A stretch of 64,000 nucleotides of DNA. It comes from Candidatus Omnitrophota bacterium (GTDB lineage Bacteria; Hinthialibacterota; Hinthialibacteria; OLB16). Within the stretch, counting starts at the first letter, position 1, and each line of letters starts with the position of its first letter. The stretch spans positions 2,849 to 66,848 of the forward strand of contig JACKFH010000020.1 in assembly GCA_020632575.1 (NCBI GenBank). The letters run 5' to 3'. The translations under genes were made by a program, and so were the position numbers. The notes under the pieces are model-generated. The model ran no database searches. It was not told the DNA's origin and saw only the letters and a list, made by a program, of their open reading frames with translations. Positions 1,008 to 18,910 of the stretch are shown piece after piece.

Positions 1008-2915
1008 TTAGTAGAGATTCCAGTTCCAGACCGCCAAACTCCCACCATCGAGGAGGAATTCGATTCCCACAGTCTCCTGACTGACATTCACTGTGACCGG
1101 TGTCGCGGATCCGAGCGTGGTGGCGCCATCGTAGTATTCATCCATGTAACCGGAGGCATTTAGCGGATCCGCACGGATGATGTATTGCCCTGGCGGGAGT
1201 GGCCCCAATATAAATTGTCCAGCCAAATCGCTTCTAGCATCGATTGCGACCGGGGTTCCATCGGTGAGAAAAACATCGAGATCGATATCCGGGAGCGGTT
1301 GATTGTTCTGGGCCGCGCGTATTGTTCCCGAAATCGTACCACCAGCCTCCAGGCTGAAATCCACATCAGAGGTGGTTGAATTCGCACTTACCACGATCAA
1401 ATCCGCGGAGGCAAAAGTGGATCTCAGATTGAAGTATTGATCCACATATCCCTGCGCGGGTGTGGAATCCGCTTGGACCACCCAGTTTCCTGGCGCGATC
1501 GGTCCCAACCGGTAATACCCCGTCGAGGAGGAGACCGCGTCAACTGCTGAGATGAATGTTCCTGTTTCGGAAAATAGGTCGAGATCGATCCCTGGGAGAG
1601 GAGTTCCTCCCGATTGGGCAAGAACGAACCCTTCGATATATCCACCAGCGTCGAGGGTGAAGTCGATATTCATCGTTTCCATCCCTGTTGTAACCGACAC
1701 CAAAGTTGCCTGATCGCGAAGGGGCGTGCTGTTATAAAACTCAGTCGCCAAACCGAGCGCAGGTGCGGGATCAGCCCGGACTGTGTAATCACCCGCGGGC
1801 AAACCTCCCAATCGGTAGAAACCGACCGCGTCCGACTTAGCCGTGATTGGTAGGCGGTTGCCAAGCGAGTCATAAACATCCAGATCAATACCCGCGACTG
1901 GCATGGCGGTTCCGCTGTCAGTGATGGTCCCGGTGATCGTTCCCCCCAAGGGGACAGCGATATCGATAAGAGTGGTAACCATTCCCGCCGAAACAGAGAA
2001 GGGAGTCGCATCTGCCTGGAAAAGGACACTTGGATAGTAAGTCCTGACATACCCGGTCAGCGGATCGGGATCGACTCGGACTACGTATGACCCGGGGGGA
2101 ACCGCGCCGATCTCATAATAGCCTGTTGCGGAGGTCACCGCTCCGAATCGAACGAAGGATCCCGCGCTAGTGAAGAGGTCCAGGTCGAATCCCGCAAGGG
2201 GGAGACCCGACCCCTGCTCGGTGACCACTCCGGACAAAACGCCTCCCTGCTGAACTTGAAAATCGATCCCGGTCAGATTGCCTGATCCGGTAATCTGGAT
2301 CGGAGTTCCAGTCGCGACTGAGTTCCCGTTTAAATAGAATCTCTCCACCAGAAACTGGAAGGAATCAGGGTCGGCTCGAAGGAAATAAGTGCCCACCGGA
2401 AGCGAGCCAAGGAGATAGTTCCCCGTCCCGTCGGTCCTGTCGTTGACCGAACTAATGAGTTCCCCATTGGAGGCGAACAGGTCCAAATCGACATTGGTGG
2501 CCACGCTTCCCACACCCTCAATGGTAATCTGGCCCTGAATGCTGAATCCCGGATCGAGTGAGAAATCGACAATGACATCGCCGACAGAAGGAACAACCAC
2601 CGGTGTCGCTTGAGACTTCAGAAAAACTCCTCCGCTGTATTGGTCCACATACCCATCGGCTGCGCTGGGGTCGGCGCGCACATAGTAATTACCCGCGGGG
2701 AGTCCGGAAAACGTATAGTTTCCGGCGCCGTCAGTGGAGGCGTTAAGTGCGACACTGTTGAAATTGGAATCGAAAAGATCGAGGTCGATTCCAGATAATG
2801 GCGTCGACCCGACTGATTCGGTAATGGTTCCTAAGATGTTTCCGGCATAAGCAGTTGATCCCCATAAAATGATGGTGACCAAATAGAAAATACGGAATGG
2901 GCGATAATGATTCAC
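1008..2915 (-). CDS. Secreted protein with six ~100-aa carboxypeptidase-regulatory-like/Cna-B-type repeats and C-terminal AVWNWNLY tail
   Basis: Signal peptide; six repeats of G-x-I-x-G...DLD[LV][FY]...G-x-Y-x-[VL]-x-[AV]D. GTG start overlaps the TPR gene stop (GTGA). Confidence 0.88.
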   Translation of the reverse strand: MNHYRPFRIFYLVTIILWGSTAYAGNILGTITESVGSTPLSGIDLDLFDSNFNSVALNASTDGAGNYTFSGLPAGNYYVRADPSAADGYVDQYSGGVFLKSQATPVVVPSVGDVIVDFSLDPGFSIQGQITIEGVGSVATNVDLDLFASNGELISSVNDRTDGTGNYLLGSLPVGTYFLRADPDSFQFLVERFYLNGNSVATGTPIQITGSGNLTGIDFQVQQGGVLSGVVTEQGSGLPLAGFDLDLFTSAGSFVRFGAVTSATGYYEIGAVPPGSYVVRVDPDPLTGYVRTYYPSVLFQADATPFSVSAGMVTTLIDIAVPLGGTITGTITDSGTAMPVAGIDLDVYDSLGNRLPITAKSDAVGFYRLGGLPAGDYTVRADPAPALGLATEFYNSTPLRDQATLVSVTTGMETMNIDFTLDAGGYIEGFVLAQSGGTPLPGIDLDLFSETGTFISAVDAVSSSTGYYRLGPIAPGNWVVQADSTPAQGYVDQYFNLRSTFASADLIVVSANSTTSDVDFSLEAGGTISGTIRAAQNNQPLPDIDLDVFLTDGTPVAIDARSDLAGQFILGPLPPGQYIIRADPLNASGYMDEYYDGATTLGSATPVTVNVSQETVGIEFLLDGGSLAVWNWNLY

Positions 2916-5164
2916 TGAGAGTTCCCTCCTTTGGCTTTGAGTTGAGCCAGTTCCTGCATTCCCTTCTGGGCATCTTCATGGTGTGGATCGAGGGACAATA
3001 CTTTTTTAAAATTCTTTTCCGCTTGTTCGAGATTGCCGGATCTCATGTAGGCGTAGGCGAGGTTGTCCCAGGAAGAGACATGATCCGGCTTGAGTTCGAG
3101 AGCCTTTCGGTAGGCATCGATGGCTTCCCGATAACGCTCCAGTTTTCCAAGGATGACTCCCTGGTTGTAAAGGTAGAGATAGCTGTCCGGTGAAACTTCC
3201 GAAGCGCGGCGATAGTTTGCCAAGGCCCTCTCCAAATCTTCTTTCGAGGAGTAGGCGCGCGCGAGTCCCGAATACGCTTTGGCATAATCGGGATCGCGTC
3301 GAATCGCTTCTTCATATCCTTGAATGGCTTCGTCGTAGAGATCGAGACGGTCCGCGGTCCGCCCCCAGTTGTAGGGGGCTTTTTGGTTCTCGGGATCGAG
3401 GCGCGTTCCGTTGCGGTAGGCTTCGAGGGCGGATTGGTAATCTTCCAGTTCGGTGAGGACTAGGCCGAGGTTATACCAGGCATTCCCATTATTGGGATCG
3501 AGTTCAATGGCTCTTTGGAGACTATTCTTGGCTTGATCGATTTGACTCAGACGGTACTGGACAACCCCCTGGTTGTACCAGGCTTCCGGGTAATCCCCCC
3601 TTAAGGCGATGGCCGCGCCGTAGTCCTCGAGCGCTTTTTGAGGTTGGTCGAGGTTGGAAAAAGCCAAGGCGCGGTTGTAAAAAGCCTCCGGGTAGTTGGG
3701 TTGAAGTTGAATCGCTCGGGAGTACGCCTCGATCGCCGGTTCATAGTCCTCCAATTTCGAACGGAGCAAACCAAGATTATACTCGGCTTCCGGATAGTTC
3801 GGCTCCAAAGCAAGCGCTTGAGAGTAAGATTTTAGCGCCGATTGGCTTTGATCGAGTTTGACCTGGACCAGTCCCAGATTGTACCAGACTTGAGGTTGAT
3901 TAGGATCCAAGTCCAATGAGGTTTGATAGGCGTTAAGGGCCTCTTCCAGCTTGCCCTCCCGGGCCAAAACCACACCCAAGTTGAAAGCTGCTTTCGGGTT
4001 GGAGGGATCGGATCTCAGAGCAGCTTCGTATGCCTCAATGGATTCGTCTCCTTTCTCCATTCGGGATAGAAGGCGTCCTAAGTTGTATTGGGCCTTGGAC
4101 AAGGTGGGGTCATAGGCAACGGTAAGCTTATACCGGTCAATGGCTTCCTCATAGCGCTTCTCTTTATTGTAAAGCAGGGCCAGGTTAAAGCTGGCTTCCG
4201 CGTACCTTGGTTTTTTGGAAATCGCTTCGAGGTAAGCCTTTTCGGCTTCTTCGTTTCGCCCGAGTTCAGACAGGACCGTGCCGAGATTGTTCAACGCCTC
4301 GGGGTAATCCGGTTTCAGCGTCAATGCTTCCTGATAGGCATCTGCCGCCTCTTCCAGGTTCCCCGACTCGGAAAGAGCGAGGGCGTAGTTATACCAGGTC
4401 TCCGGTTTTTTGGGCGCTTGGGTTTGCGCCTGTTCGAAGGCTTTCGCCGCGCGATCGCTTTCCCCGATTCTTTGGAGAACCACTCCCAGATTGTAAGCGG
4501 CCTTCCAGTTCTCCGGCTCAAGCCGCAGAACTCGCTCATATTCCTCGATCGCCTTTTCGTTTTGCCCCGAGTTCGCGTAGGAGAGGGCGAGATTGTAACG
4601 AGCCGGTGTGTAGTCCGGCTTCAATAGGATCGCTTCCTCAAAGGACCTGATGGCCTCGGGGTAATCGCCCTCTCGCGTATAAAGAACCCCCAAATTGTGA
4701 TGCGCCTTATAGTATTTCTCGCTCGAATCGAGATCGATCACCTTCCGATAGGATTCCATCGCCTCTTCCCGATTGCCATTCCGTTCTTCCAGAATTCCGA
4801 GGTTGTACCAAGCCTCGGTGTAGGTGGGACGAATGCGGACCGCTTGCTTGTAGGCCTCGATGGCCTCATCCAGCGAATCGACCGCCACGAGGATGATGCC
4901 GAGGTTGTAATATCCGCGGGCGTATTCGGGATCGACCTCGACCGCTTTTCGCATCCATCGCACCGCTTCATCGGGTTTTCCCAAACGGTAGTAAAGGACG
5001 CCCAAATCATTGCAAGCCACGGAATCGTTTGGGTTGTCCGCAAGGGAGCGTTCGATCTCTTGGACTTTTTGTTCCAAATCTCGGGTTGTCTGAGAAAAAC
5101 CAGACAAAGAAGCAATGGTCAGATAAAAGATAGCGATGATTGAGATGAAAATCTTTTGGCTCAC
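2912..5164 (-). CDS. Exported tetratricopeptide-repeat protein (about 20 TPRs)
   Basis: Continuous 34-aa repeats (YNLG..L...G...EA...Y..A...P). Likely GTG start 5164 overlaps the upstream TGA and precedes a hydrophobic signal (KIFISIIAIFYLTIASLSG); the ORF-track extension to 5371 overlaps the ATP-grasp gene. Confidence 0.92.
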   Translation of the reverse strand: MSQKIFISIIAIFYLTIASLSGFSQTTRDLEQKVQEIERSLADNPNDSVACNDLGVLYYRLGKPDEAVRWMRKAVEVDPEYARGYYNLGIILVAVDSLDEAIEAYKQAVRIRPTYTEAWYNLGILEERNGNREEAMESYRKVIDLDSSEKYYKAHHNLGVLYTREGDYPEAIRSFEEAILLKPDYTPARYNLALSYANSGQNEKAIEEYERVLRLEPENWKAAYNLGVVLQRIGESDRAAKAFEQAQTQAPKKPETWYNYALALSESGNLEEAADAYQEALTLKPDYPEALNNLGTVLSELGRNEEAEKAYLEAISKKPRYAEASFNLALLYNKEKRYEEAIDRYKLTVAYDPTLSKAQYNLGRLLSRMEKGDESIEAYEAALRSDPSNPKAAFNLGVVLAREGKLEEALNAYQTSLDLDPNQPQVWYNLGLVQVKLDQSQSALKSYSQALALEPNYPEAEYNLGLLRSKLEDYEPAIEAYSRAIQLQPNYPEAFYNRALAFSNLDQPQKALEDYGAAIALRGDYPEAWYNQGVVQYRLSQIDQAKNSLQRAIELDPNNGNAWYNLGLVLTELEDYQSALEAYRNGTRLDPENQKAPYNWGRTADRLDLYDEAIQGYEEAIRRDPDYAKAYSGLARAYSSKEDLERALANYRRASEVSPDSYLYLYNQGVILGKLERYREAIDAYRKALELKPDHVSSWDNLAYAYMRSGNLEQAEKNFKKVLSLDPHHEDAQKGMQELAQLKAKGGNSQ

Positions 5165-7676: not shown

Positions 7677-8047
7677 TTAACTGACTCCGGTGTTCAAGGT
7701 GAATCCTGATTCTCCGGATGGGATTCTCTTGAGCGGGAAAACTAGCAAAACAATACTTTCATCGCATCCGGAGAAACGATGGAATCAGAGGATTTCCTCA
7801 ACAAATTAAACAGAAGAGCCTGGTGAATAAACACACCTAGTCCAGTGGTTGAGAGTAAATCAGGCATCTCCAGGAGAGTAGGTGGCAATTGGCGAAGTTT
7901 TTTTTACAAGTTTTTATCCTAACCCTCCCGAAAACTCCTCCGAATTGCAAAAAGAGGATCTCGATTGTCGCTCTCAATTGACCGAATCAGGTTTCACTCC
8001 CCAGCATTTTCCGATCAAGAATGCCTCCTTCCACGTGGGGGAACCTA

Positions 8048-8431
8048 TCACGCCGCCTCTCGGTTCCCGTTGACGTAAGCCTGGCAAAGTTCTTCGAGAC
8101 TCTTCTTCTGGACTTTCTTCAGTTGCTTCCGGTCTCCTTGGATCTGTTTGTCCTTGTTGAGCGAGGTTTGGAGCCATTCGATGGCTTGAGTCACGATTTC
8201 CGGGACACCTTCATCCGGGAGGTAATAGTAGATCCAGCGACCCTTCTTTTTGGAATCGATCAATTCAGCCTGTTTGAGGATTGACAGGTGTTTCGATACA
8301 GTCGAGGGGGCCAAGCCCAAAAGTTCGATAATCTGGCAGACGCACAATTCATCCTCGGAAAGGAACATCATGATCCGAACTCGATTCTCGTCGGAAAGGG
8401 CTTTGGTGACCGCCATTAGATTGCGCAACAT
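8048..8431 (-). CDS. arsR: ArsR/SmtB family repressor with CVC motif
   Basis: KALSDENRVRI...ELCVCQIIELLGLAPSTVSKHLSILKQAELIDSKKKGRWIYY. Confidence 0.92.
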   Translation of the reverse strand: MLRNLMAVTKALSDENRVRIMMFLSEDELCVCQIIELLGLAPSTVSKHLSILKQAELIDSKKKGRWIYYYLPDEGVPEIVTQAIEWLQTSLNKDKQIQGDRKQLKKVQKKSLEELCQAYVNGNREAA

Positions 8432-9111
8432 GCTGAAACCGTTTCCTCCTCAAACAGGATTCGTCCCTCGACCAACTTCAGTGTCCTCGAAGTCCTCTCG
8501 GCGACCTGTGGGTCGTGGGTTACCAGTATAACCGTTTTTCCCTCGGCGTTGAGTTCCCCGAGGAACTCGACGATTTCGTCCCTGGTTTGAGGATCGAGAT
8601 TGCCGGTCGGCTCATCCGCCAAAACAATCTTCGGATCGTTCGCCAGCATCCTCGCGAGCGCGACACGCTGTTGTTGGCCGACGCTCAATTCCGAGGGTTT
8701 GTGGTCCATTCGATCCCCGAGGCCCACTCGCGTCAAGAGTTTCTCGGCCATGTCGAGTTGAGCCTTTTCATCCTTTCCATCTAAAAGGAGAGGGACCTGG
8801 ACATTCTCCAGTGCCGTCAAATAGGGGATCAAATTGAAAGTCTGAAACACGAAACCGATGTTCTTCCTTCGAAAGGCGGCCCGGTCTTCCACACTCAGAT
8901 CATAGAGCGACGTGTCTTCCACAAAAACCTTTCCAGCGGTAGGTGACAACATTCCGCCCATCAGCAGAAGCAACGTGCTCTTCCCACTTCCACTCGGGCC
9001 GACCATCGAAACAAATTCTCCCTCGCCGCACACGAAACTCGCATCGTTAATGGCGGAAACGTTGCTCCTTCGATGAGTGTATTTTTTCGAGACACCTTCC
9101 AATCGAAGCAT
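8416..9111 (-). CDS. ABC transporter ATP-binding protein (LolD/MacB-like)
   Basis: Walker A GPSGSGKST, signature LSVGQQQRV, Walker B VLADEPTGNLD, H-loop VTHD; C-terminal SACCAI. Confidence 0.95.
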   Translation of the reverse strand: MLRLEGVSKKYTHRRSNVSAINDASFVCGEGEFVSMVGPSGSGKSTLLLLMGGMLSPTAGKVFVEDTSLYDLSVEDRAAFRRKNIGFVFQTFNLIPYLTALENVQVPLLLDGKDEKAQLDMAEKLLTRVGLGDRMDHKPSELSVGQQQRVALARMLANDPKIVLADEPTGNLDPQTRDEIVEFLGELNAEGKTVILVTHDPQVAERTSRTLKLVEGRILFEEETVSACCAI

Positions 9112-9114
9112 CGA

Positions 9115-10329
9115 TTAAACCTCCTGAAGCGACTGGGACGGATCGATTCGAGCGGCGCGTCTCGCTGGAAAGTACGAGGCAGCCAACGCGATCAAGACAG
9201 AGATAACCACAGCCCATAGGGCAAGCATTGGCATGGGCAGAACTGGGACTCCCGCCAGACGAGGCCCCATCGTCACCGCCAGGAATGTCCCCACCAGATA
9301 ACCGCCGATACCACCGGCCAGGCCAAGCATGAGGGCTTTTAGCAGAAAGATCTTGAGGACGATTCGCGAACCCGCGCCGAGGGCCATCAAGGTTCCGATC
9401 TCCCTTCGGCGCTCATAGACATTTGCGTACATGTAGTTGGCAATACTCGCCCCGCCCACCAAAACAATGATGGCAAGGAAGATCAGGGAGAGGTTGCCCA
9501 TCATCTGGTTGGTCTTGATTTGGGTATCGATGATCTGCGTGATCGTGACCACCTTTGCATCGGGAAGGAGCTTGTTGAGCTTTTCGATCAAGCCCCCGGC
9601 GATCTCGTGACAGCAACCGATAACTTCTATCGCGTTCACGACAGCTCCTTTCCCCGCCATTTCCTGGACCGTGTGGAGGTGCGCGAATATCCGGGAATCG
9701 TCGATGGTTCCGGTTTGAGGAAGGGTAGCTGTGATTCGGAAGGTTCGCCCGAGAATTTCAAGAGAACCTCCCTCTTCGAGTCCCACCATTACGGCGACAT
9801 CCGAACCAACCAGGACCTCATCCGGAGCAAGATCCTCGATGACACGGGTTCGGACGAGCGTTTCGGTGACCGGAGCCTTCTCCAATCCCGGAACCGCCGC
9901 GCCGCATCCGATGGGGCGATTGAAGATTCCGGCTCCCGCCCATGCCGCTTTAGCGGCGAATTCGCTTTTCGGAAGGATTCCCGTCAGGATGAATTCTTTC
10001 TCGTTGAGCGAAATGGGTAAGGAGAGTTTCGGCGAAAGATTGTCCACGCCCTCGACATCGGACATCGCGATTTGAGCCACATACTGTTCGGGGAGTTCTT
10101 CGTTCTGCATGTCGGCGGTGTAGTAATCCTGAAGGGACACCGACTTGGGGAGAATGAGAACGTTGGCCCCCAAAGCATCCAGCTCCCGCGCCACCGCCAG
10201 TTCGGAGAAATAAGATATGTTCTTAATGGCGACGATGACGGTGATTCCCAGGAGAATCGCTAGAAAGCTCGTGACAAGCTGGTTCTTCCTCTCAAAGATT
10301 TCTTTCCAGACAAGGGTGCGGATCTTCAT
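9115..10329 (-). CDS. ABC transporter permease, MacB/FtsX type
   Basis: N-terminal TM, large periplasmic domain, ERRREIGTLMALGA motif, three C-terminal TMs, ending PARRAARIDP. Confidence 0.93.
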   Translation of the reverse strand: MKIRTLVWKEIFERKNQLVTSFLAILLGITVIVAIKNISYFSELAVARELDALGANVLILPKSVSLQDYYTADMQNEELPEQYVAQIAMSDVEGVDNLSPKLSLPISLNEKEFILTGILPKSEFAAKAAWAGAGIFNRPIGCGAAVPGLEKAPVTETLVRTRVIEDLAPDEVLVGSDVAVMVGLEEGGSLEILGRTFRITATLPQTGTIDDSRIFAHLHTVQEMAGKGAVVNAIEVIGCCHEIAGGLIEKLNKLLPDAKVVTITQIIDTQIKTNQMMGNLSLIFLAIIVLVGGASIANYMYANVYERRREIGTLMALGAGSRIVLKIFLLKALMLGLAGGIGGYLVGTFLAVTMGPRLAGVPVLPMPMLALWAVVISVLIALAASYFPARRAARIDPSQSLQEV

Positions 10330-10342
10330 TGGGCAGGCTCCT

Positions 10343-11290
10343 TCAGTTCCCGAACATCGACTTGACTTTAGCTACGATGCCCTTTTTCTGAGGTTGTGGT
10401 TGGGAGGAACTTGAAGCTGTGGGTCCTCCTTTGGCAGGACCGCAGCCACCGGGACCACAAACTCCACCCGGACCACAGGCCCCACTCGCTTGAATCTTCG
10501 AAAGGATCATCGATTTTGTCGTCCCCGCCATGAACTTCCCAAGAACACTTCCAGGGGGAACCATCATCACGGTCTGAGCGGCGGTTACTGTGGGATCGAT
10601 TTCAAGTTGCGCGAGGAATTTTGCTTCATTGGGGTCTGCGGGATTAAGGAAAACCACTTCGGTTGCTTGAGCGAACTGAGGATCTGCCTTGACCTCATTG
10701 ACACCATAAAGCGCGGCTTCGTTTGATTGGGTCTGCTGGTTTTGAATGCAGATGAAAACCAATTTCTGCATCTGAAGACCCCGAAGGACCTGCTCCATCG
10801 CCGGAGTGCCGAACGACCCCAGAAGTTGGGCCTCGGTGAATGAGGTTGGAAAACCTCCCATCACCGCCCCGTTGGGAGCCAATGCAATGACCAACGGCAT
10901 CGGCGCTCGGCTCACATTGAAGTATTTCACCACCGGTTGCTCGTTGGGATCGAGAATGTTGATCCCCAGTGCGTCGGCCCTATTCGCCACCTTTGACATC
11001 GTGGTCTGAAACACGTTCCACATGGCAAGCGTCGGTTCATCTTGGGCCGACAGAAAGAATAAAAAGAGATACCGATTACTACTTTGAGCGCGAGCGATAG
11101 CCGCCATGCCCTTGTTGGTATCGGGAAGCGGGGGTGGTTGCGGCGCCTGAACCACTGGCGCGGGTTGTTCCTCTGCTGGTTGAGAGGGTTCGACATCTTC
11201 GAACCAGGGATTGGCCTGTTGAGCGATTGCGGTAACCGGTACTAATAGAATCACAAGCGCGACAAGAATAACCGCCTTATCTTTTCTCAT
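10343..11290 (-). CDS. Exported protein with two thioredoxin-like (no CxxC) segments and a Cys/Gly-rich tail
   Basis: AGGAGG precedes ATG 11290; signal peptide MRKDKAVILVALVILLVPVTAIA; tail GACGPGGVCGPGGCGP. The fold call is inference. Confidence 0.7.
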   Translation of the reverse strand: MRKDKAVILVALVILLVPVTAIAQQANPWFEDVEPSQPAEEQPAPVVQAPQPPPLPDTNKGMAAIARAQSSNRYLFLFFLSAQDEPTLAMWNVFQTTMSKVANRADALGINILDPNEQPVVKYFNVSRAPMPLVIALAPNGAVMGGFPTSFTEAQLLGSFGTPAMEQVLRGLQMQKLVFICIQNQQTQSNEAALYGVNEVKADPQFAQATEVVFLNPADPNEAKFLAQLEIDPTVTAAQTVMMVPPGSVLGKFMAGTTKSMILSKIQASGACGPGGVCGPGGCGPAKGGPTASSSSQPQPQKKGIVAKVKSMFGN

Positions 11291-11322
11291 TGGAGAAGAC
11301 CTCCTGAAATCTGGGCGGCATG

Positions 11323-11368
11323 ACTTCGTTGATTGGCGAAGTATCAAGTATAGTTTCGTCCCTGTCAA
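11323..11368 (-). promoter_or_regulatory. Sigma70 promoter plus ArsR-type operator of the ABC/arsR operon
   Basis: Minus strand TTGACA (11368-11363), 17 nt, GATACT (11345-11340); inverted repeat ACTTCG-N8-CGAAGT at 11323-11342 overlaps the -10. Confidence 0.75.
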
Positions 11369-11615
11369 GGGAGACTCAACAGGGCAATTCAACAACTTCT
11401 AGACTTCTGAGTGGAATCAGACCGTGTGTCCATTGCGGCACGCCATTCGAGAAAGGTTGTACCGCCCCTCCTCGATTTCGCGATTCGTGTCGAAGACATC
11501 CAGCGCGGGGTGAACGTGTGTGAGGACAATAACCTCACGCGCCTGGTCCGTGAGCGACGTTTCCCATACCAACCGAGTTGATTGTCGATTTTGGTTAGTC
11601 AGGACAGGCGACGTA

Positions 11616-11930
11616 TCATGCTGCAACCTCGAGCAGCACTTCGGGATGACGCTCCGCGATCTTCAGCAGTGTCCGTGCCGCGCCCGATGGCTCGCGCCGG
11701 CCTTGCTCCCACTGCTGTAGGGTGCGTTTCGAAACGCCAAGAACCGACGCAAACTGGGCCTGAGAGAGCCCACTTTTCAGGCGCACACGAACCACGCGCG
11801 ACTTCGGCTCCACTTTCGTCCGCTTGCCTCCTCCCGCCTTGATTTCTCGCACGCCCTCCAAGACTTCCCGCCACACATCGCGCTCGGTCTCGAACTTTGC
11901 TAATGCCTTTCCGGTAAGTTTTTTACTCAT
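11616..11930 (-). CDS. higA: HigA-like Xre/HTH antitoxin
   Basis: RLKSGLSQAQFASVLGVSKRTLQQWEQGRREPSGAARTLL; overlaps the toxin stop. Confidence 0.85.
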   Translation of the reverse strand: MSKKLTGKALAKFETERDVWREVLEGVREIKAGGGKRTKVEPKSRVVRVRLKSGLSQAQFASVLGVSKRTLQQWEQGRREPSGAARTLLKIAERHPEVLLEVAA

Positions 11931-12237
11931 TTCGGAATGCCTCCAATAACTGCTTCAGTATATGCGCGGGCGCATCCTCGCGTTTGGCCTTGGCATAGAT
12001 CGTCAACATCCAAAACTCATTCGGTCCACGCCGCGCGAAATAGATGATCCGTAGACCGCCGCGTTTGCCCATACCTGGACGCGACCAACGTAACTTGCGA
12101 ATCCCACCCGACCCCGGAACAACCTGACCGGCATCCGGATTTTGTATCATGAACTGCTGCAATTCGGCGTACTCGTCGTCGTCCAAATACACGGGGCAAA
12201 TCCGTTCGAATATGGACGATTCGATGAATGTGAACAT
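11923..12237 (-). CDS. higB: RelE/HigB-2-like toxin
   Basis: FIESSIF...NPDAGQVVPGSGGIRKLRWSRPGMGKRGGLRIIYF...WMLTIYAK; toxin-first order. Confidence 0.85.
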   Translation of the reverse strand: MFTFIESSIFERICPVYLDDDEYAELQQFMIQNPDAGQVVPGSGGIRKLRWSRPGMGKRGGLRIIYFARRGPNEFWMLTIYAKAKREDAPAHILKQLLEAFRNE

Positions 12238-12343
12238 TCCCTAAACTATACTCCAGTGGCGTCTAGGCCGCAAGTCGCGCTCCAGGGGAAATGCGATAAT
12301 GGTCAGTCGGGAACTGAGATTCATGTCTCTGAATGCTCCCTAA

Positions 12344-13036
12344 TCAGAACACTTTGAAAATATGCACCAGGATTAAATAGATCCCGACCAAAATGAACAC
12401 GGTCCCCGTGATCCTTCTTCCCCACACTTCGATTTGAGTCATCCGGTCGAAAACCTTTCCAATCGTTCCAATTCCTGTCGCGATGACCACCGCGAATACC
12501 AGGACCGGAAGCGCGGTGCCGACCCCATACAGAAAGGGGATCAAAAAATAGGATTGGTATTGAACCGAGAGCGGGACCAGACTGCCGAAGAACAGGGCCG
12601 CGGAGACGGGGCAGAACGAAAGTGCGAAGAGAAAACCGAGGAAGGCCGCTCCCCAGATTCCCATCGCTTCGGCTCTTTTTTGGGTCTTCTCCCCAATACC
12701 CCCTCCAGTGAATCGGAATGAGATCAATTCCAAAAGAAACATTCCGACGATGATCAGGATGGGACCGAGCAATTGGTTCATGGAGTTCTGAAGAAACTCT
12801 GAAAGGACAGGGGCCGAGAGCAGACTTGTTACAAGCAGCGTCCCGACGAGCAGATAACTCAGGGTTCGACCAACGGTGTAGAGGGCGCCTGTCAGGAAAA
12901 CCAGTTTGGGATGACTGACTTTCTTCCCGATATAGGCGATGGCCGCGACGTTTGTGGCGAGAGGGCATGGACTGATCGAAGTCAAAATGCCCAGCCACAA
13001 GGCGGAGAGAAATCCGAGCGCGAATCCCCCGTCCAT
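12344..13036 (-). CDS. arsG: ArsG-family / CcdA(DsbD)-like membrane protein
   Basis: GILTSISPCPLATN and ALSFCPVSAALFFG motifs, about 6 TMs. ATG 13036 overlaps the upstream stop (TGATG). Confidence 0.8.
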   Translation of the reverse strand: MDGGFALGFLSALWLGILTSISPCPLATNVAAIAYIGKKVSHPKLVFLTGALYTVGRTLSYLLVGTLLVTSLLSAPVLSEFLQNSMNQLLGPILIIVGMFLLELISFRFTGGGIGEKTQKRAEAMGIWGAAFLGFLFALSFCPVSAALFFGSLVPLSVQYQSYFLIPFLYGVGTALPVLVFAVVIATGIGTIGKVFDRMTQIEVWGRRITGTVFILVGIYLILVHIFKVF

Positions 13037-13554
13037 CACAGTCGCTCCAGAAAAGGCTGAACCTCGGTTCGGATGTAATCGAAATAGGCTTCCTTTTCGT
13101 GAACCAGTTGCCAAACCTTGTGCAGGTTCTTCCATTCCACTGTTTCAGCCCCGCTGACTTCGGCGACAACAACCGAACTGGCGACGAGTTCGAAGTCCTT
13201 AACGTAATGAGAATTCCAAACCTCGTCCGTGTTGATCGTCTTCCATTCGAGCGATCCCGATTCGATCTCAGAGGGAAAAAATTCCCGCATTGCCTCGTGC
13301 GCTCCCTCTTCGATGGCCCGGCAAGTTGGGCATCGGACATCCCCGTGAAAGTAATAGGCGATGAGTCTTCGGTTGGGTAAATCCACTGGTGATTCCATCT
13401 CATCCAAGACAGGCTCTTGGATGTTGGCGGTCTCCACCACGGTTTCCGGCGTGTCCTCCGCTGTGATGTCTTCACTTTTACCGACGAGCAGGTATCCGAG
13501 GCTGGCCACTACGAAGACCAGAAGCGTGGTTGTAATTATTTGTTTGGTGGGCAT
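13036..13554 (-). CDS. arsF: ArsF-family thioredoxin-like protein
   Basis: N-terminal TM anchor; YYFHGDVRCPTCRAIE motif; context beside arsG- and arsE-like genes. Confidence 0.8.
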   Translation of the reverse strand: MPTKQIITTTLLVFVVASLGYLLVGKSEDITAEDTPETVVETANIQEPVLDEMESPVDLPNRRLIAYYFHGDVRCPTCRAIEEGAHEAMREFFPSEIESGSLEWKTINTDEVWNSHYVKDFELVASSVVVAEVSGAETVEWKNLHKVWQLVHEKEAYFDYIRTEVQPFLERL

Positions 13555-13629
13555 TTTCTCATCTCCTTCATTGACTTTTCATTATTGTGTTGATTCTGTC
13601 CGCCATTTCTGTTCCACCAATTCCGATCC

Positions 13630-13970
13630 GTGTCATTCCAACTCCAATCCCTGTCATTCCTCCAATCGTCCTAAGAAACATGAACTCAATAATCTCCCAA
13701 GAATTCTCCTTGGTGTCATTTCGAGAATTGTGCTTGGTGTCATTTCGACCGGAGGGAGAAATCTTTTGGGTGGCGAAATTTTCATTTCACCGTTCACTTA
13801 GAAGGGTGGGATCACTTCCCCCCTCCGCGGTTTTATTGGAACGATCAGACGGTTCGCTCCCACCAGATTTCTCCCTCCGGTCGAAATGACACTCAGTAAA
13901 GCATCCGAGAAAAGGAAGTTTCCTTCTCTCATCAGCGATCACCCCGCTCCACGCTCGGAATGACACCAAG
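13630..13970. repeat. REP-like repeat cluster with a perfect 28-bp inverted repeat
   Basis: GTGTCATTTCGACCGGAGGGAGAAATCT (13737-13764) and its exact reverse complement (13865-13892); CTTGGTGTCATTTCGA at 13709 and 13733; inverted variant 13955-13970; TGTCATTCC at 13631 and 13652. Confidence 0.85.
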
Positions 13971-14005
13971 TAGAGATTGCGGCGAAAATCAAATTCACTC
14001 ACCCA

Positions 14006-14251
14006 TCAAGAGACCACCGCCGACTCCAGAATCGACCGGATCTGGTCCGAGGTTGCAAGGCGTCCCTGAAGTTTGACTTCGCCCTCCACGACGAGTGCCG
14101 GGGTCATCATCACTCCGCGACTGGTGATTTCATCGATAGAGGTCACCTTTTCGAGGTCATACTCACAGCCGAGTTCGTCGGCGGCGGTCCTTGTGTTCGC
14201 CTCAAGTGCATGACACTTGGCGCATCCAGTTCCCAAGATTTCGATTTTCAT
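14006..14251 (-). CDS. arsE: MTH895/ArsE-family small thioredoxin-like protein
   Basis: MKIEILGTGCAKC...GVMMTPALVVEGEVKLQG. Confidence 0.85.
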   Translation of the reverse strand: MKIEILGTGCAKCHALEANTRTAADELGCEYDLEKVTSIDEITSRGVMMTPALVVEGEVKLQGRLATSDQIRSILESAVVS

Positions 14252-14286
14252 CTTTGTTTCCTCCTATGCTTTGTTTTTGATTGGCC

Positions 14287-14658
14287 TTACACGGTCAGGG
14301 ATCTTTTGACTTCATCCGCAATTCGCGCCGAGTCTTCCGCCATCCGGGGCGTCTCGGGTTTCTTTTCGATCCCGAGATCGGTCGCTGCGACATGGACATC
14401 CACGGGGAGTCCCGCTTTCTCCAGGACGATCTTGCAGCAATGGTCCTCGCATCCATCGATGGCGATTCGAGTTCCGGCGTTTCGTGCTCGCTCCATCTTT
14501 TCGGGACGGTCGGCGGCGATGGCCGCGATACAAAAAAGGTTTCCGAATTTTTCTCGGTGGAGTTGCACTCCGGCCTGATTCGAGGCTTGGCCGGAATAAG
14601 CCGCCCCGGCACAGGTGAAGACCAGGGTTTCTCCATTGGTTTGAACGGAATTCGACAT
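14287..14658 (-). CDS. DGC-domain putative zinc-binding protein
   Basis: FTCAGAAYSGQASN, FCIA, IAIDGCEDHCCK motifs. Confidence 0.85.
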   Translation of the reverse strand: MSNSVQTNGETLVFTCAGAAYSGQASNQAGVQLHREKFGNLFCIAAIAADRPEKMERARNAGTRIAIDGCEDHCCKIVLEKAGLPVDVHVAATDLGIEKKPETPRMAEDSARIADEVKRSLTV

Positions 14659-14679
14659 GACAGCAACCTCCTTTTTCTT

Positions 14680-15987
14680 CTAAACCAAAGCGCCGTACGC
14701 CATTCCGGTGATGGTGGCCATCACCACCACCAGCAAGGTGAAAACGGCGGTCTTCTTGAATCCGATGATCGAATGGATGACAAAAAGGCTGGGCAGCGAA
14801 AGCGCCGGTCCCGCGAGAAGCAGAGCTAGCGCCGGACCTTGCGCCATTCCATGCTCCATAAGGGCTTCCAGAATCGGGATCTCGGTCAGCGTCGCGAAAT
14901 AGAAAAGACAACCGATGAAAGAGGCGACAAAATTGGACAGCAGACTGTTACTCCCGACCCAAGCCGCGATCTGCTGATCTGGGAGGAGTGCGCCGATGAA
15001 ACCGACCAGGAAAACTCCCCCATACAGAAGGGGAATGAGGAGTTTCGCGAAATCCCAGGTGTTGTGCATCCATTCACCGATTTCGTCGCGGTCGAACCAA
15101 CTCCAGGTCATCAGAAGGACGATCAACCCCATTAAACCGGCCAGCCACCAGCGTATGTGGTAGATCGCCAACACCCAGGTCTTTGAGTCTTCCACACTTT
15201 GAATCTCCGGCTTCGACAAAGTGATTTTTTGTCCCACCGAGTATCCGGCCACCGGCTCCTCGACTTGGAAGAGGATTGCGTCGCGGGTTTCTTGGAGCTG
15301 AACCGCGTGGATGGTCTGTCCGTCGGCCGTCGTCACCGCCACGTCTCCGGGATTGTACCAATCGCTGAAGATGAGGAAGGCGATCATGGCGACAAAGAAC
15401 GCGAGGTTTTTCCACATCGCCCGTCGCGCGGGCGGCGGTTCGGGCAATTGCATCGCCGCGTCGTTCCTCTTGACCTCATCCCGTCGAAAGAATCGTTCCA
15501 TGAGGAGTCCAATGATGACCGCGAAGACAATCGCGCCGACCGCTCGGGCTAAGCCGATCTGGAACCCGAGGACACGCGCGGTGAGGAAGATGGCGAGGAT
15601 GTTGAGCGCCGGACCCGAGTAGAGGAACGCCGAGGCGGGGCCGAGGCCCGCACCCACACGGTAGATCCCTGCGAACATCGGGAGGACGCTGCATGAGCAA
15701 ACCGCGAGGACCGTCCCGGACACGGAGGCCACCGAATAGGCTTCGGCCTTTCTGGCCTTGGGTCCGAGATGTCGAAGAACCGCTTCTTGGGAAAGGAAAG
15801 TGACAATGGCCCCCGCGATGAACAGGGCCGGAACCACACAGGCTAGCGTATGATTCCGCGCGTACCATTGGAGCATTTTGAAAGCTTCGAGGATGGCAGT
15901 GGTGACTTTGGGGCTGGATAGTGGGAGATAGTAGGCCACGAGGAAAATGGCCGCGAACCAACTGAAGATTTTGAGTTCTTTGTTCAT
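14680..15987 (-). CDS. arsP: ArsP-family (DUF318) organoarsenical permease
   Basis: HTLACVVPALFIAGAI, VLAVCSCSVLPMFAG, FYFATLTEIPI, GPALALLLAGPALSLPS. Confidence 0.9.
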   Translation of the reverse strand: MNKELKIFSWFAAIFLVAYYLPLSSPKVTTAILEAFKMLQWYARNHTLACVVPALFIAGAIVTFLSQEAVLRHLGPKARKAEAYSVASVSGTVLAVCSCSVLPMFAGIYRVGAGLGPASAFLYSGPALNILAIFLTARVLGFQIGLARAVGAIVFAVIIGLLMERFFRRDEVKRNDAAMQLPEPPPARRAMWKNLAFFVAMIAFLIFSDWYNPGDVAVTTADGQTIHAVQLQETRDAILFQVEEPVAGYSVGQKITLSKPEIQSVEDSKTWVLAIYHIRWWLAGLMGLIVLLMTWSWFDRDEIGEWMHNTWDFAKLLIPLLYGGVFLVGFIGALLPDQQIAAWVGSNSLLSNFVASFIGCLFYFATLTEIPILEALMEHGMAQGPALALLLAGPALSLPSLFVIHSIIGFKKTAVFTLLVVVMATITGMAYGALV

Positions 15988-16042
15988 GACTCAATCCTTT
16001 GCTTTATGGCTAAATGACCATGCGATGGCGAAAAAAAATCGC

Positions 16043-16372
16043 TCATCCCCCCACTAACGCTTCCTCTCGTTCCAGATTCTCCTTGAGCACGTTCTCGATG
16101 CACATGAAAAAGCCCTCCAGACATTTCACCCGCAACCGGTAGAAAATCATGGGACCCTCCTTGCGGGTGTCCACCAGTCCGGCGTTCTTAAGCACCGACA
16201 GATGCCGGGATACCGTCGATTGATCGGCCCCCACAAGCTCGGTCAACTCGCAGACGCAGATCTCCCTTTCCTGGAGGGCGTCCACAATCATCAACCGGCT
16301 GGGGTGTCCCAGGGCCTTGGCGATGGCCGCGCGGCGTTCATAGAAAGAGATTTTCTTTGTCTTCATGGTCAT
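16043..16372 (-). CDS. arsR: ArsR family repressor with CVC motif
   Basis: AKALGHPSRLMI...EICVCELTELVGADQSTVSRHLSVLKNAG. Confidence 0.93.
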   Translation of the reverse strand: MTMKTKKISFYERRAAIAKALGHPSRLMIVDALQEREICVCELTELVGADQSTVSRHLSVLKNAGLVDTRKEGPMIFYRLRVKCLEGFFMCIENVLKENLEREEALVGG

Positions 16373-16406
16373 ATTGCAATATGACCTATTTAATGGCTCC
16401 TGTCAA
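16367..16406 (-). promoter_or_regulatory. Promoter and autoregulatory operator of the arsR-arsP operon
   Basis: Perfect 20-bp palindrome GGTCATATTGCAATATGACC (16367-16386) over the start codon; TTGACA (16406-16401), 17 nt, CATATT (16383-16378). Confidence 0.8.
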
Positions 16407-16512
16407 TGGCGCTTCTTCCGCAACTCAAATCCCCCGTGAGGTGCGGCGGGGGAAGGAACCACCCCCCAATCCCTTATCTTGGAAGGGCCTGAAGAGTGGC
16501 TAGAATTGATTC

Positions 16513-17285: not shown

Positions 17286-18365
17286 TTATTCAAACCAACT
17301 TCGTGTGCGGTTACAGAAGGCGCAAACCGAAAGCATGACCGGGACTTCGACAAGGACTCCAACGACTGTAGCCAGGGCCGCTCCCGATTCTGGGCCGTAC
17401 AGGGCGATGGCAGTCGCTACCGCGAGTTCGAAAAAGTTGCTGGCTCCGATCAATGCTCCGGGGGCGGCCACCGAATGCTCCACCCGAAACAACTTCATGA
17501 GGCCGTAGGCCAATGAGGAGTTGAAATAGACCTGAATCAAGATAGGGATGGCGATCAGGATGACATGAAAGAAACGTCCCGTGATGTTGTCGGCTTGAAA
17601 GGCGAAGATGAGGACCAGGGTGGCGAGGAGCGCCACCACCGCGACAGGATGGAATCTTGGGAGGAAGGTATCGTTGAACCAAGTTTCGCCCTTAGATTTG
17701 ATGAGCCAAATTCTGGAGATCGTTCCGGCGGCCAGTGGAATGACAATAAAACAGATGACCGCATAGATCAAAACCACAAACGGAACGGTCAGGGCCGAAG
17801 CCCCCGCGATCAAGAAGGTGACAATCGGGGCGAACAAGAACAGCATGATGAGATCGTTGACCGAGACCTGAACCAAGGTGTAAGCCGGGTCGCCATCGGT
17901 CAGATAACTCCAGACAAACACCATCGCGGTGCAGGGAGCCGCCGAAAGGATGATGACCCCGGCGATGTACTGATCCGCCAACTCCGGGCCGATCAGGGGA
18001 AGGAAAAGATGTTTGAAAAAGAGCCACCCCAGGAAAGCCATGCTGAAGGGTTTGACCAGCCAGTTGACGAAGAGAGTGATGAGTAATCCTTTGGGTCTCT
18101 TTCCCACCTCCACAATCGATGAGAAGTCCACCTTGAGCATCATGGGGTAGATCATCAGCCAGATGAGAATCGCGATGGGGATATTGATTTGGCTTCCGGC
18201 CCCAAACTCGATGTCCCGAAGGGTGTCCGTCAGACCGGGCAGCAGTTTCCCGACTCCCACACCCACAATCATGCAGAGGGCAACCCAAAGACTCAGGTAA
18301 CGTTCGAAGATGTTGAGCCGCTTTGTCGTCGGCCCAGCCATTTCAATCGCGGCATCGTCAATCAC
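17286..18365 (-). CDS. acr3: ACR3 family arsenite efflux transporter
   Basis: LNIFERYLSLWVALC, LIWLMIYPMMLKVDF, AAPCTAMVFVWS, IGASNFFELAVA, GVLVEVPVML. Confidence 0.96.
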   Translation of the reverse strand: MIDDAAIEMAGPTTKRLNIFERYLSLWVALCMIVGVGVGKLLPGLTDTLRDIEFGAGSQINIPIAILIWLMIYPMMLKVDFSSIVEVGKRPKGLLITLFVNWLVKPFSMAFLGWLFFKHLFLPLIGPELADQYIAGVIILSAAPCTAMVFVWSYLTDGDPAYTLVQVSVNDLIMLFLFAPIVTFLIAGASALTVPFVVLIYAVICFIVIPLAAGTISRIWLIKSKGETWFNDTFLPRFHPVAVVALLATLVLIFAFQADNITGRFFHVILIAIPILIQVYFNSSLAYGLMKLFRVEHSVAAPGALIGASNFFELAVATAIALYGPESGAALATVVGVLVEVPVMLSVCAFCNRTRSWFE

Positions 18366-18820
18366 ATGCTATCCCCCATATCCATGAGCGATTTCGGAAG
18401 TGTTTCCACAAACCTCCGGATTTCGTCGCGGACTCGACGATAGAGTTCGAACGCCTCTTCCTCGGTCCTGGCCTCTTTCGCCACACGTGGAGGGTCGTCG
18501 AACCCCCGGTGAATAACCCGCGCTTTTCCGGGGAAGACCGGACAGGTTTCGTGGGCGTGGTCACAGACCGTGACCACATAGTCGAAGGGAATGTCAACGA
18601 CTTCCTCCACTCGTTTGGAGCGGTGACCAGAGATGTCCACACCCACTTCGGCCATCGCCTTGACCGCACTCGGGTTCAGCCCATGCGTCTCGATCCCCGC
18701 TGAATGCGCCTCGACCAGATCCGACTTCAGATGTCTGGCCCACCCTTCGGCCATCTGGCTTCGGCAGGAGTTCCCGGTGCAGAGGAACAGAATATTCAAT
18801 CTTGAGTTGCTTTCACTCAT
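18362..18820 (-). CDS. arsC: Arsenate reductase (thioredoxin-coupled, LMW-PTP fold)
   Basis: LFLCTGNSCRSQMAEG P-loop; VTVCDHAHETCPVFPG; FDDP. Confidence 0.95.
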   Translation of the reverse strand: MSESNSRLNILFLCTGNSCRSQMAEGWARHLKSDLVEAHSAGIETHGLNPSAVKAMAEVGVDISGHRSKRVEEVVDIPFDYVVTVCDHAHETCPVFPGKARVIHRGFDDPPRVAKEARTEEEAFELYRRVRDEIRRFVETLPKSLMDMGDSM

Positions 18821-18859: not shown

Positions 18860-18910
18860 TTTATACTTCGTCAGATGGCGAAGTATAAAAGGAGTTTGAC
18901 AGAGTGTCAA
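18860..18910 (-). promoter_or_regulatory. Sigma70 promoter and ArsR-type operator of arsC-acr3
   Basis: TTGACA (18910-18905), 17 nt, TATACT (18887-18882); inverted repeat TTTATACTTCG-N8-CGAAGTATAAA (18860-18889). Confidence 0.85.

Follow-up and report, generated by a model that had tools for sequence, protein, structure and literature searches.

The known mechanisms of bacterial arsenic resistance are located in the cytoplasm or act across the inner membrane (ArsC, Acr3/ArsB, ArsA/ArsD, ArsM, ArsP). In the cytoplasmic ArsD-ArsA system, which is under ArsR control, As(III) is bound by a small protein with a cysteine triad and handed over via thiol exchange to the cysteine triad of an ATP-driven machine. 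The type VII ABC systems YbbAP-TesA and HrtBA take hydrophobic compounds or haem out of the membrane, and their class includes non-transporting mechanotransducers such as FtsEX-EnvC, too. YbbAP operates with a dedicated periplasmic partner (PMC12646458). The window analysed here, a stretch of 64,000 nucleotides from a Candidatus Omnitrophota bacterium, contains a tightly packed operon running from 11290 to 8048 and encoding an exported protein, a permease, an ATPase and the repressor ArsR1. In the literature we found neither a published description of this cassette nor a published ars component of such kind. As it has its operator in common with the arsenic-resistance genes arsC-acr3, the cassette probably serves, in an arsenic-induced and hitherto undescribed manner, to deal with arsenite in the cell envelope.

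The permease (404 aa, 9115..10329, minus strand) is of the FtsX/MacB/LolC-like type, with four transmembrane helices and a periplasmic domain, and matches PF02687 with 66.4 bits (cutoff 25.5). In the AlphaFold2 model, which is of moderate confidence (pLDDT 69.6), the helices comprise residues 15-53, 263-306, 321-359 and 368-393, and the periplasmic domain (about 54-262) lies between the first two. The MacB_PCD domain (PF12704) is precomputed on nearly all homologs, but the permease of the window itself stays below the Pfam threshold. Profile matches in the PDB were MacB, LolE, YtrF and FtsX. Foldseek returned LolE as top match as well as MacB, HrtB and YbbP, and the periplasmic domain matched LolC, LolE and MacB. 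The ATPase (231 aa, 8416..9111, minus strand; PF00005, 120.8 bits) resembles LolD and the nucleotide-binding domain of MacB, and its Walker A, signature, Walker B and H-loop motifs are all intact by eye. Its best NCBIfam matches are LolD (TIGR02211, 227 bits), YbbA, MacB and FtsE, every one of them below the equivalog cutoff. With an FtsX-type transmembrane domain, a periplasmic domain and a cognate ATPase, the predicted pair belongs to the type VII ABC systems (MacB/LolCDE/FtsEX/YbbAP superfamily).

Within this superfamily, the cassette resembles LolCDE-LolA in its four-helix FtsX-fold permease, large periplasmic domain, LolD-like ATPase and soluble periplasmic partner. However, there is a single permease gene, whose product is probably a homodimer, instead of the LolC/LolE pair, and in place of the LolA barrel the partner has two thioredoxin folds followed by a cysteine tail. 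The invariant thiol triad of the permease, the predicted ArsR control and the surrounding ars genes are further differences. A function as LolCDE lipoprotein release system was rejected, the permease model TIGR02212 giving 37 bits against a cutoff of 362 and the partner having a thioredoxin fold; all NCBIfam Lol models score far under their cutoffs on the window proteins. The FtsX domain finds its best sequence match in MacB (PDB 5nik, 5lil), and MacAB-TolC would have the mechanotransmission principle and the withdrawal of substrates from the periplasm in common with the cassette, whose nucleotide-binding domain, in contrast, is a separate polypeptide and whose partner is unrelated. Membership in the MacAB-TolC systems was rejected because neither a MacA adaptor nor a TolC duct was found in the operon or in the annotated ORFs between 8 and 19 kb. 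At the related locus L095 a separate MFP-MacB pair adjoins the cassette; its permease is only distantly related. YbbAP-TesA and HrtBA contain structural neighbours of the permease according to Foldseek, but they have no metal-binding thiols or ArsR control, and their partner is another kind of protein. The likeness to ArsD-ArsA is one of concept, a Cys-triad capture protein serving the Cys triad of an ATP-driven machine under ArsR control; the folds are unrelated, both thiol sites of the window system would be extracytoplasmic and its motor is of the type VII ABC class. The selenoprotein ABC system SAO (Haft and Gwadz) was rejected as well, since the SAO permease is MetI-like.

GCC and GCG motifs had been claimed for the periplasmic domain of the permease by a first-pass annotation of the sequence. 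Both are present, C142 in PIGCGA within an unmodelled loop and C239-C240 in IGCCHE, and the three cysteines are unchanged in 120/120 close homologs. The CC pair is also kept in all of the 36 more distant homologs and is the only Cys feature invariant over the whole family. The ATPase does end in SACCAI as described, but as a Cys motif this did not hold up: it is missing even in the closest relatives, indicating that the ending is incidental.

The exported partner, here called TrxTail (315 aa, 10343..11290, minus strand), has a signal peptide (cleavage between AIA and QQ by eye), two thioredoxin folds, a disordered cysteine tail and a basic C-terminal extension. No sequence match was found in Pfam, NCBIfam or the PDB. 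The AlphaFold2 model consists of two beta-alpha-beta-alpha-beta-beta-alpha units with pLDDT of at least 94 (94-98 for about residues 60-270, below 60 for the tail), and Foldseek matched AhpF-NTD, QSOX, PfPDO, PDI and single thioredoxins with probability 1.0. Neither thioredoxin domain contains a CxxC redox site; the conserved cysteines are C181 and, in the tail CGPGGVCGPGGCGP, C272, C278 and C283. This tri-Cys tail with the pattern CGPGGxCGPGGC is kept across the family. Contrary to the earlier description, the protein continues beyond the Cys motif for about 30 residues (...KKGIVAKVKSMFGN).

The promoters of the cassette and of arsC-acr3 are 7.5 kb apart and carry the same dyad over the -10 box. 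Operator 1 (11321..11344, no strand assigned) is a 24-bp dyad, TGACTTCG-TTGATTGG-CGAAGTAT, reading ATACTTCGCCAATCAACGAAGTCA in gene orientation, and overlaps the predicted transcription start of the cassette operon as well as its -10 box. The promoter (11340..11368, minus strand) is sigma-70-like and consists of a -35 box TTGACA (11368-11363), a 17-nt spacer and a -10 box GATACT (11345-11340), matching 10 of 12 consensus positions, and this architecture is repeated in the relatives L018, L019, L094 and L095. Operator 2 (18863..18886, likewise unstranded) reads ATACTTCG-TCAGATGG-CGAAGTAT (given as ATACTTCGTCAGATGGCGAAGTAT) and overlaps the -10 box of the arsC-acr3 promoter (18882..18910, minus strand; TTGACA, 17-nt spacer, TATACT, 11/12 consensus matches). 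The first-pass annotation had proposed a common operator overlapping the -10 of TTGACA-N17 promoters, and this was seen at both sites on the minus strand. The arsR2 promoter and these two rank as the top three promoter-like sites in 7700-19400. The window contains the 20-bp core dyad ACTTCG-N8-CGAAGT twice without mismatch, where 0.27 would be expected even with one mismatch, and these copies are the only exact ones in the whole 5.55-Mb assembly. By eye, the two promoters resemble each other little beyond -35, -10 and dyad, which argues against a recent promoter duplication.

ArsR1 (127 aa, 8048..8431, minus strand), whose start overlaps the ATPase gene by 16 nt, is an ArsR/SmtB repressor with a winged HTH_5 domain (PF01022, 65.5 bits; NF033788, 93.6 bits, cutoff 55). 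It is predicted to bind operators 1 and 2. The CVC motif attributed to it earlier lies in ELCVCQ, and C30, C32 and C116, candidates for an As(III)-type thiol site combining the CVC of alpha3 with a third Cys, are conserved in six orthologs. An assignment as TsoR equivalog was rejected (NF045707, 62 bits, cutoff 115). Related loci yielded the extended 24-bp consensus ATAyTTCGCCAT followed directly by ATGGCGAArTAT, to which operator 2 is identical at 22 of 24 positions. Such a site precedes the cassette in every fetched locus encoding an ArsR1 ortholog with C30, C32 and C116, in two phyla: in L018, L019 and L020 of the same family, in the metagenomic loci L093, L094/L095 and L029, and in L067 of the Planctomycetota. 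In L020 the operator is also found in front of arsC. Fetched cassette loci without an ArsR1 ortholog contain no site matching at least 17 of the 24 consensus positions, and TTCG-N8-CGAA cores number just 18 in about 655 kb of fetched loci. Tracking the ArsR1 orthologs and preceding arsC in a relative, the operator supports ArsR1 rather than ArsR2 as the common repressor, in line with the earlier proposal that ArsR1 controls both operons. Of the refuting conditions set for the first-pass reading, two were accessible to computation, on the conservation of the Cys motifs and on that of the operator, and neither refuted it. Co-regulation of the cassette and arsC-acr3 is well supported in silico. 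We infer that ArsR1 represses both promoters and is released by As(III) or Sb(III) binding to the putative thiol site C30/C32/C116, which would make the cassette part of the arsenic regulon.

The further ars genes analysed are on the minus strand, too. The arsC gene (18362..18820; PF01451) encodes a thioredoxin-coupled arsenate reductase of the LMW-PTP type (TIGR02691, 147.8 bits, under the equivalog cutoff of 174.3), and acr3 (17286..18365), overlapping the arsC stop by 4 nt, encodes an arsenite efflux permease (TIGR00832, 383.8 bits, cutoff 282.8). The first-pass annotation had stated that arsC-acr3 has no arsR of its own; indeed none is adjacent, but arsR2 lies 2.4 kb away, heading a separate operon. 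This second ars unit (14006..16386) comprises arsR2 (16372..16043), an ArsP_1 permease (15987..14680), a DGC protein (14658..14287) and an ArsE-type thioredoxin-like protein (14251..14006). The palindrome of arsR2, GGTCATAT-TGCA-ATATGACC at 16367-16386, differs from operators 1 and 2 and occurs nowhere else in the genome. The cassette is immediately preceded, at this locus as at L067, L068 and L095, by a gene pair (12344..13554; NF040494, 104 bits, cutoff 60; NF040495, 286 bits, cutoff 200; PF13386) encoding a membrane-anchored ArsF-like CPTC thioredoxin-like protein (13554..13036) and a DsbD_2/CcdA-like membrane protein of the ArsG family (about 13036..12344), likely a periplasmic reductant supply. 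As in classical arsRBC or arsR-arsC-acr3 operons, there is a CVC-type ArsR/SmtB protein, a predicted autoregulation via an inverted repeat at the -10 box and a co-regulated arsC-acr3; the autoregulated operon of the window differs in opening with the ABC machine and its exported partner as its first three genes.

Synteny ties the cassette to ars genes in other genomes as well. An uninterrupted string of cassette, arsR, arsC and acr3 was found in the closest relatives L093, L019 and L029, and a contiguous cassette-arsR-arsC in L020. In the clade whose permeases are at least 56% identical, 12/16 evaluable loci have an ArsR gene next to the cassette (L021, L027, L066 and L070 are the four without) and nine of 15 have arsC and/or acr3 at most 10 kb away. 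Distant family members have Cys/His tails and RND, P-type ATPase or CbiM genes as neighbours, indicating that the linkage to arsenic is restricted to one clade and that the scaffold is not intrinsically arsenic-specific. The type of the tail co-varies with that of the permease loop: CGPGGC occurs with GCG, CCDDxNCKHH with GCC, and SSCC with a deleted loop. The arsenic-linked cassettes are one clade of a larger type VII ABC family that handles metals and has no name.

The explanation of the whole that we cautiously prefer, and hold to be somewhat probable, is an ArsR1-switched operon encoding an ATP-driven periplasmic thiol relay for trivalent arsenicals. Permease and ATPase would not pump across the inner membrane; ATP hydrolysis would move the periplasmic domain, as in MacB, LolCDE, FtsEX and YbbAP. 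This domain would offer a thiol triad consisting of C142 on a flexible loop and the C239-C240 pair. TrxTail, as the dedicated periplasmic protein of the system, may catch trivalent arsenicals with its flexible C-x5-C-x4-C tail, be it from outside, from Acr3 or ArsP efflux into the periplasm or from the outer leaflet. Thiol-to-thiol transfer would swap the arsenical between this tail and the permease triad, and the ATP-driven conformational change would break the As-S bonds and release it outward, protecting periplasmic thiol proteins. The adjoining ArsF-like CPTC protein and the CcdA-like ArsG may keep the cysteines of the system reduced.

Alternatively, the cassette might handle another thiophilic metal (Hg(II), Cd(II), Cu(I), Sb(III) or Bi(III)), with ArsR1 as a broad soft-metal sensor and arsC-acr3 merely on the same switch. 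CVC-type sites are present in Cd/Pb sensors such as CadC, too, and the Cys/His tails of distant members next to an RND pump, a P-type ATPase or a CbiM gene point in the same direction. Nevertheless we regard this as unlikely: the same operator governs an arsenate reductase, of use solely against arsenic, ArsR1 has neither the N-terminal Cys pair of CadC nor the alpha5 His site, and the neighbours found in the clade are arsC, acr3, arsEFG and ArsP-type genes (mer, cad and cop genes were not searched for). Similarly improbable is an arsenic-induced protection or repair of periplasmic thiols without transport, in which the ABC pair mechanically activates or recycles TrxTail in the manner of FtsEX-EnvC, a member of the same class, and TrxTail acts as a sacrificial As(III) sponge or as chaperone for As-poisoned thiol proteins, e.g. 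apocytochromes c. It would fit an operon that encodes no outer-membrane channel or adaptor as exit duct, and a partner with PDI-like b/b' domains lacking CxxC, a type of domain that binds substrates. The invariant thiol triad of the permease and its co-variation with the tail type, however, point to direct contact of the permease with the metal.

Still less probable, in our view, are trivalent organoarsenicals (methyl- or aryl-As(III)) as the substrate, extracted from the outer leaflet like haem by HrtBA or hydrophobic compounds by YbbAP. Two thiols would suffice for these and could be supplied by the family-wide CC pair; the structural neighbours of the permease include HrtB and YbbP, and the organoarsenical genes arsEFG and ArsP_1 flank the cassette here and in L018, L019, L020, L067 and L068. 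But the tri-Cys tail together with C142 suits three-coordinate inorganic As(III), and inorganic arsenic is what the co-regulated arsC and acr3 work on. Finally, the common dyad might be the site of ArsR2 or of some unrelated factor, or the remnant of a promoter duplication, as both ArsRs are encoded in the window and binding by ArsR1 is a prediction. This is very improbable, given the low similarity of the promoters outside their shared elements, the loci L029, L067, L093 and L094, where the dyad is present and just an ArsR1-type gene was found, and the distinct palindromes that arsR2 genes carry in four genomes.

If the preferred thiol relay exists, an ATP-powered periplasmic arsenic system would add a new compartment and a new class of machine to arsenic resistance; arsenic would be the first metal(loid) substrate of a type VII ABC system and TrxTail the fifth kind of dedicated periplasmic partner. 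More tentatively, and with some doubt, the trio could be a programmable extracytoplasmic metal(loid)-extraction machine whose specificity is set by co-evolution of tail and permease loop, with CGPGGC tail and GCG loop dedicated to arsenic, and other metals served by CCDDxNCKHH or SSCC tails. The arsenic clade of this machine might then form a third, so far unrecognised tier of resistance after reduction and cytoplasmic efflux, with ATP hydrolysis in the cytoplasm pulling periplasmic As(III) off thiols. The family comprises about 900 clusters of the partner at 50% identity and more than 3,200 clusters of the permease at 90% identity, and with the 24-bp operator common to the cassette and arsC-acr3 this large unnamed family gains a concrete regulatory handle. 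Sec encoding in the G009 copies was rejected, their TGA codons arising from frameshifts.

The cassette and arsR1 comprise four genes arranged head-to-tail on the minus strand, and this operon structure is established in silico. The gene of the exported partner (11290..10343, 315 aa, signal peptide ending between AIA and QQ, AGGAGG 8 nt 5' of the ATG) is followed after 13 nt by the permease gene (10329..9115, 404 aa) and this after 3 nt by the ABC ATPase gene (9111..8416, 231 aa); arsR1 (8431..8048, 127 aa) starts 16 nt inside the latter. ArsR1 scored over the cutoffs for HTH_5 and the ArsR/SmtB model (Pfam, NCBIfam). The ATPase matches ABC_tran, with LolD, YbbA, MacB and FtsE as nearest NCBIfam models. 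The permease matches FtsX in Pfam, and its top NCBIfam models (MacB, LolC/E, DevC) each stayed far under the equivalog cutoff. For the partner no match was found in Pfam, NCBIfam or PDB sequences.

An AF2 model of the partner, built on 110 sequences, exhibits two thioredoxin folds (pLDDT 94-98 over about residues 60-270) and a disordered tail. Its best Foldseek matches were two-Trx-domain proteins, namely the N-terminal domain of AhpF, QSOX, Pyrococcus PDO and PDI b-b'; neither domain of the partner contains a CxxC. The permease model (mean pLDDT 69.6) has a periplasmic domain in addition to four TM helices; C142 lies in an unmodelled loop (122-164), and a CC pair begins helix 240-254. Structurally, the permease comes closest to LolE, MacB, the pneumococcal MacB-like transporter, HrtB and YbbP. 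From these predicted folds we classify the cassette as a type VII ABC system whose dedicated periplasmic partner is of a new kind. A link to the SAO selenoprotein ABC system of Haft and Gwadz was rejected because the SAO permease is of the MetI type. An identity with TsoR was rejected, too, the TsoR match being far under cutoff, and we found no paper joining TsoR to ArsR.

The first-pass annotation had proposed one operator common to the promoters of the cassette and of arsC-acr3, and this was borne out. The window contains ACTTCG-N8-CGAAGT at two places only, 11323-11342 and 18865-18884, against 0.27 occurrences expected even with one mismatch permitted, and there is no third exact copy across the 5.55-Mb assembly. 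In gene orientation, the promoters read TTGACA-N17-GATACT-TCGCCAATCAACGAAGTCA (cassette) and TTGACA-N17-TATACT-TCGCCATCTGACGAAGTAT (arsC-acr3). Together with the promoter of arsR2 they are the top three sigma-70-like sites within 7700-19400. By eye they have little in common outside the -35 and -10 boxes and the dyad, and since the similarity is mostly confined to these elements a recent promoter duplication appears unlikely. A different, perfect 8-4-8 palindrome at 16367-16386 (GGTCATAT-TGCA-ATATGACC), found only once in the assembly, covers both the -10 box (CATATT) and the start codon of arsR2, implying that the arsR2 mRNA would be leaderless or nearly so.

Related loci were drawn from the relatives of the genome, a Planctomycetota 400-genome sample and metagenome contigs. 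An operator-like site over a (G/T)ATACT -10 box was detected at the same placement 5' of the cassette in L018, L019 and L020 (same family as the window genome), in the closest metagenome relatives L093 and L094/L095 (85-87% permease identity), in the metagenome locus L029 and in a Planctomycetota genome (L067). The cross-locus consensus is a 24-bp palindrome with the halves ATAyTTCGCCAT and ATGGCGAArTAT. Each operator-bearing locus long enough to show one encodes an ortholog of ArsR1, the identity being 53-60% or higher; the L018 and L095 contigs stop short of its position. L020 carries an additional site between arsR1 and arsC, and L024 two sites 5' of two ArsR1-like genes. No site matching at least 17 of the 24 positions was found at cassette loci with another ArsR type or without a regulator, and TTCG-N8-CGAA cores number just 18 in about 655 kb of fetched loci. 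In the genomes of four relatives, a degenerate operator pattern proved uninformative, its counts not exceeding the control. The arsR2 genes of relatives carry the palindrome ATATGG...CCATAT, unlike the ArsR1 dyad. As the operator co-occurs with ArsR1 orthologs and not with other regulators, it tracks ArsR1, which supports ArsR1 as its predicted binder. The initial assignment of ArsR 8048..8431 to both operators thereby gains support, as the sites accompany ArsR1 orthologs and the arsR2 palindrome differs.

The cysteines of ArsR1, C30 and C32 (ELCVCQ) and C116 (EELC), are kept in the orthologs of L019, L020, L029, L067, L093 and L094. The CVC motif aligns to Cys58/Cys60 of CadC and to CVG of SmtB; an alpha5 His/Asp zinc site and an N-terminal Cys pair are absent from the sequence. 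The predicted three-thiol site is consistent with sensing of As(III)/Sb(III), which does not in itself prove specificity. Binding of As(III) to ArsR1 would derepress the cassette as well as arsC-acr3.

Permease C142, C239 and C240 are invariant in all of 120 homologs (68-100% identical, from contigs labelled Planctomycetota, Omnitrophica and Thermodesulfobacteriota). The CC pair is likewise invariant in 36 further permeases with identities down to 42%, in which C142 is mostly there. The partner tail is Cys-rich in nearly all members (CGPGGCGPGGCGP in the close clade), and among the best 148 representatives of the partner family 127 have at least 2 Cys in the last 45 residues. Tail and permease loop vary together: CGPGGC-type tails go with a GCG loop, CCDDxNCKHH with GCC, SCNCEKCK with NCTGRTC, and SSCC with a loop deletion. 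Conservation of the extracytoplasmic thiols and their co-variation between partner and permease are established in silico. The Cys motifs pointed out initially thus hold for the permease and the partner tail, but not for the ATPase, whose SACCAI ending is not conserved even at 87% permease identity; the C-terminal CC was for this reason rejected as part of a thiol relay.

Permease copies of the relative genome G009 were flagged for an in-frame TGA. A selenocysteine reading was rejected on translation: these copies are frameshifted or a decayed pseudogene, and the three sites carry normal Cys codons. One of the two G009 cassette copies (L023, G009:C1, 8175-9387), with a frameshifted permease and a fragmented arsR, is decaying within an arsR-arsC-acr3 cluster.

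The partner family comprises 914 clusters at 50% identity (E <= 1e-3); at 90% identity, the permease search gave over 3,200. The permease is present in 5 of 35 genomes of the small phylum to which the window belongs and in 25 of 401 genomes of the Planctomycetota sample, where the order partner-permease-ATPase is retained at 26 of 29 places. In locus L027, which belongs to a 706-kb metagenome contig, the permease and ATPase genes of the cassette are separated by an inserted group II intron reverse transcriptase (RVT_1 and GIIM, 11663-12991). The window's own genome encodes a stand-alone paralog of the partner (G000:C32:272641-273276; locus L017, 9707-10363; 42% identical); its tail reads GGCGADCKC and is accompanied by a basic C-terminal extension like that of the partner. 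No FtsX permease or ATPase is adjacent to it, and a same-genus relative (L022) has its counterpart.

Judging from gene neighbourhoods, the arsenic linkage of the cassette is clade-specific. In the clade with 56% permease identity or more, 12 of 16 evaluable loci have an ArsR gene next to the cassette, and 9 of 15 have arsC and/or acr3 at most 10 kb away. In the permease tree, 10 loci linked to ars genes or ArsR fall into a 14-member clade and one into its 15-member sister clade. Members of the latter have Cys/His tails, and among the genes near them are those for an AcrB/CzcA-type RND pump together with a P-type ATPase, or for CbiM. That the cassette of the window acts on another soft metal we consider improbable. 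We rather propose that its targets would be trivalent arsenicals, in the periplasm or the outer leaflet; that it prefers organoarsenicals seems more doubtful still.

Under the proposed action on trivalent arsenicals, mechanotransmission would drive a thiol-to-thiol transfer between the partner tail and the permease triad, and ArsF and ArsG would provide the reductant holding these cysteines reduced. No adaptor or duct gene is encoded at the cassette; a protective device that does not transport at all is nevertheless an unlikely reading. In L095, a CzcB/RND-type membrane-fusion adaptor is encoded between arsF-arsG and the cassette (1588-4687), together with a second MacB-like permease-ATPase pair that is very divergent, and this putative set could offer an outer-membrane crossing route in some hosts. 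A full-text literature search (FtsX/MacB with ars, ArsR or hgcA; type VII ABC with metals) returned neither an account of this cassette nor an FtsX/MacB-type component of an ars operon.

The arsenic island spans about 8.0 to 18.9 kb and contains, in coordinate order, arsR1 and the cassette, a RelE/MqsA-like pair, arsG and arsF, the genes for ArsE, DGC and ArsP_1 with arsR2, toxin-antitoxin remnants, and acr3 and arsC. The arsG-family DsbD_2 and arsF-family CPTC proteins both scored over NCBIfam cutoffs, and the ArsE-type thioredoxin-like protein, DGC protein, ArsP_1 permease and arsR2 were assigned by Pfam/NCBIfam. In the second unit, arsC (18820..18362) overlaps acr3 (18365..17286; TIGR00832, 384 bits, cutoff 283) by 4 nt. 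No anomaly in composition was found, the GC content (0.51-0.57) being equal to that of the flanks. In L093, the closest long contig, partner, permease, ATPase, ArsR, ArsC and Acr3 follow each other uninterrupted; this order is kept in L019 and L029, and in L020 up to ArsC. The island looks like a rearranged form of the contiguous order in which arsC-acr3 retains its own operator copy. ArsF-ArsG-cassette order occurs in L067, L068 and L095, too.

Between arsG and the cassette promoter lie genes for a RelE-like toxin and an MqsA/HTH_3 antitoxin (11616-12237, minus strand); because arsF-arsG directly abuts the cassette in L067, L068 and L095, the pair looks like an insertion. A small antitoxin-like ORF and a truncated PemK/MazF-like ORF (weak Pfam match, E 0.004) between arsR2 and acr3 (16510-16889, plus strand) resemble a decayed toxin-antitoxin module. 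Just 5' of the arsC promoter, a 75-aa open frame (18971-19198, minus strand, start codon not required) matches class-I SAM methyltransferases (Methyltransf_31, E 5.5e-11) in what we take to be a likeness to the SAM-binding region of ArsM. This frame, probably what is left of a truncated arsM, points to rearrangement of the island. A 92-aa ORF with several cysteines (CFGK..., RCQDCVSFRSC), which has no Pfam or NCBIfam family, begins 13 nt past the acr3 stop (16995-17273, minus strand) and may belong to the arsC-acr3 unit as its third gene. Finally, the 450-nt non-coding gap from arsE to arsF (13555-14005) contains two opposite-strand hairpins (13697-13713, plus; 13909-13892, minus), each followed by an identical TGTCATTTCG, which may constitute a small inverted-repeat element.
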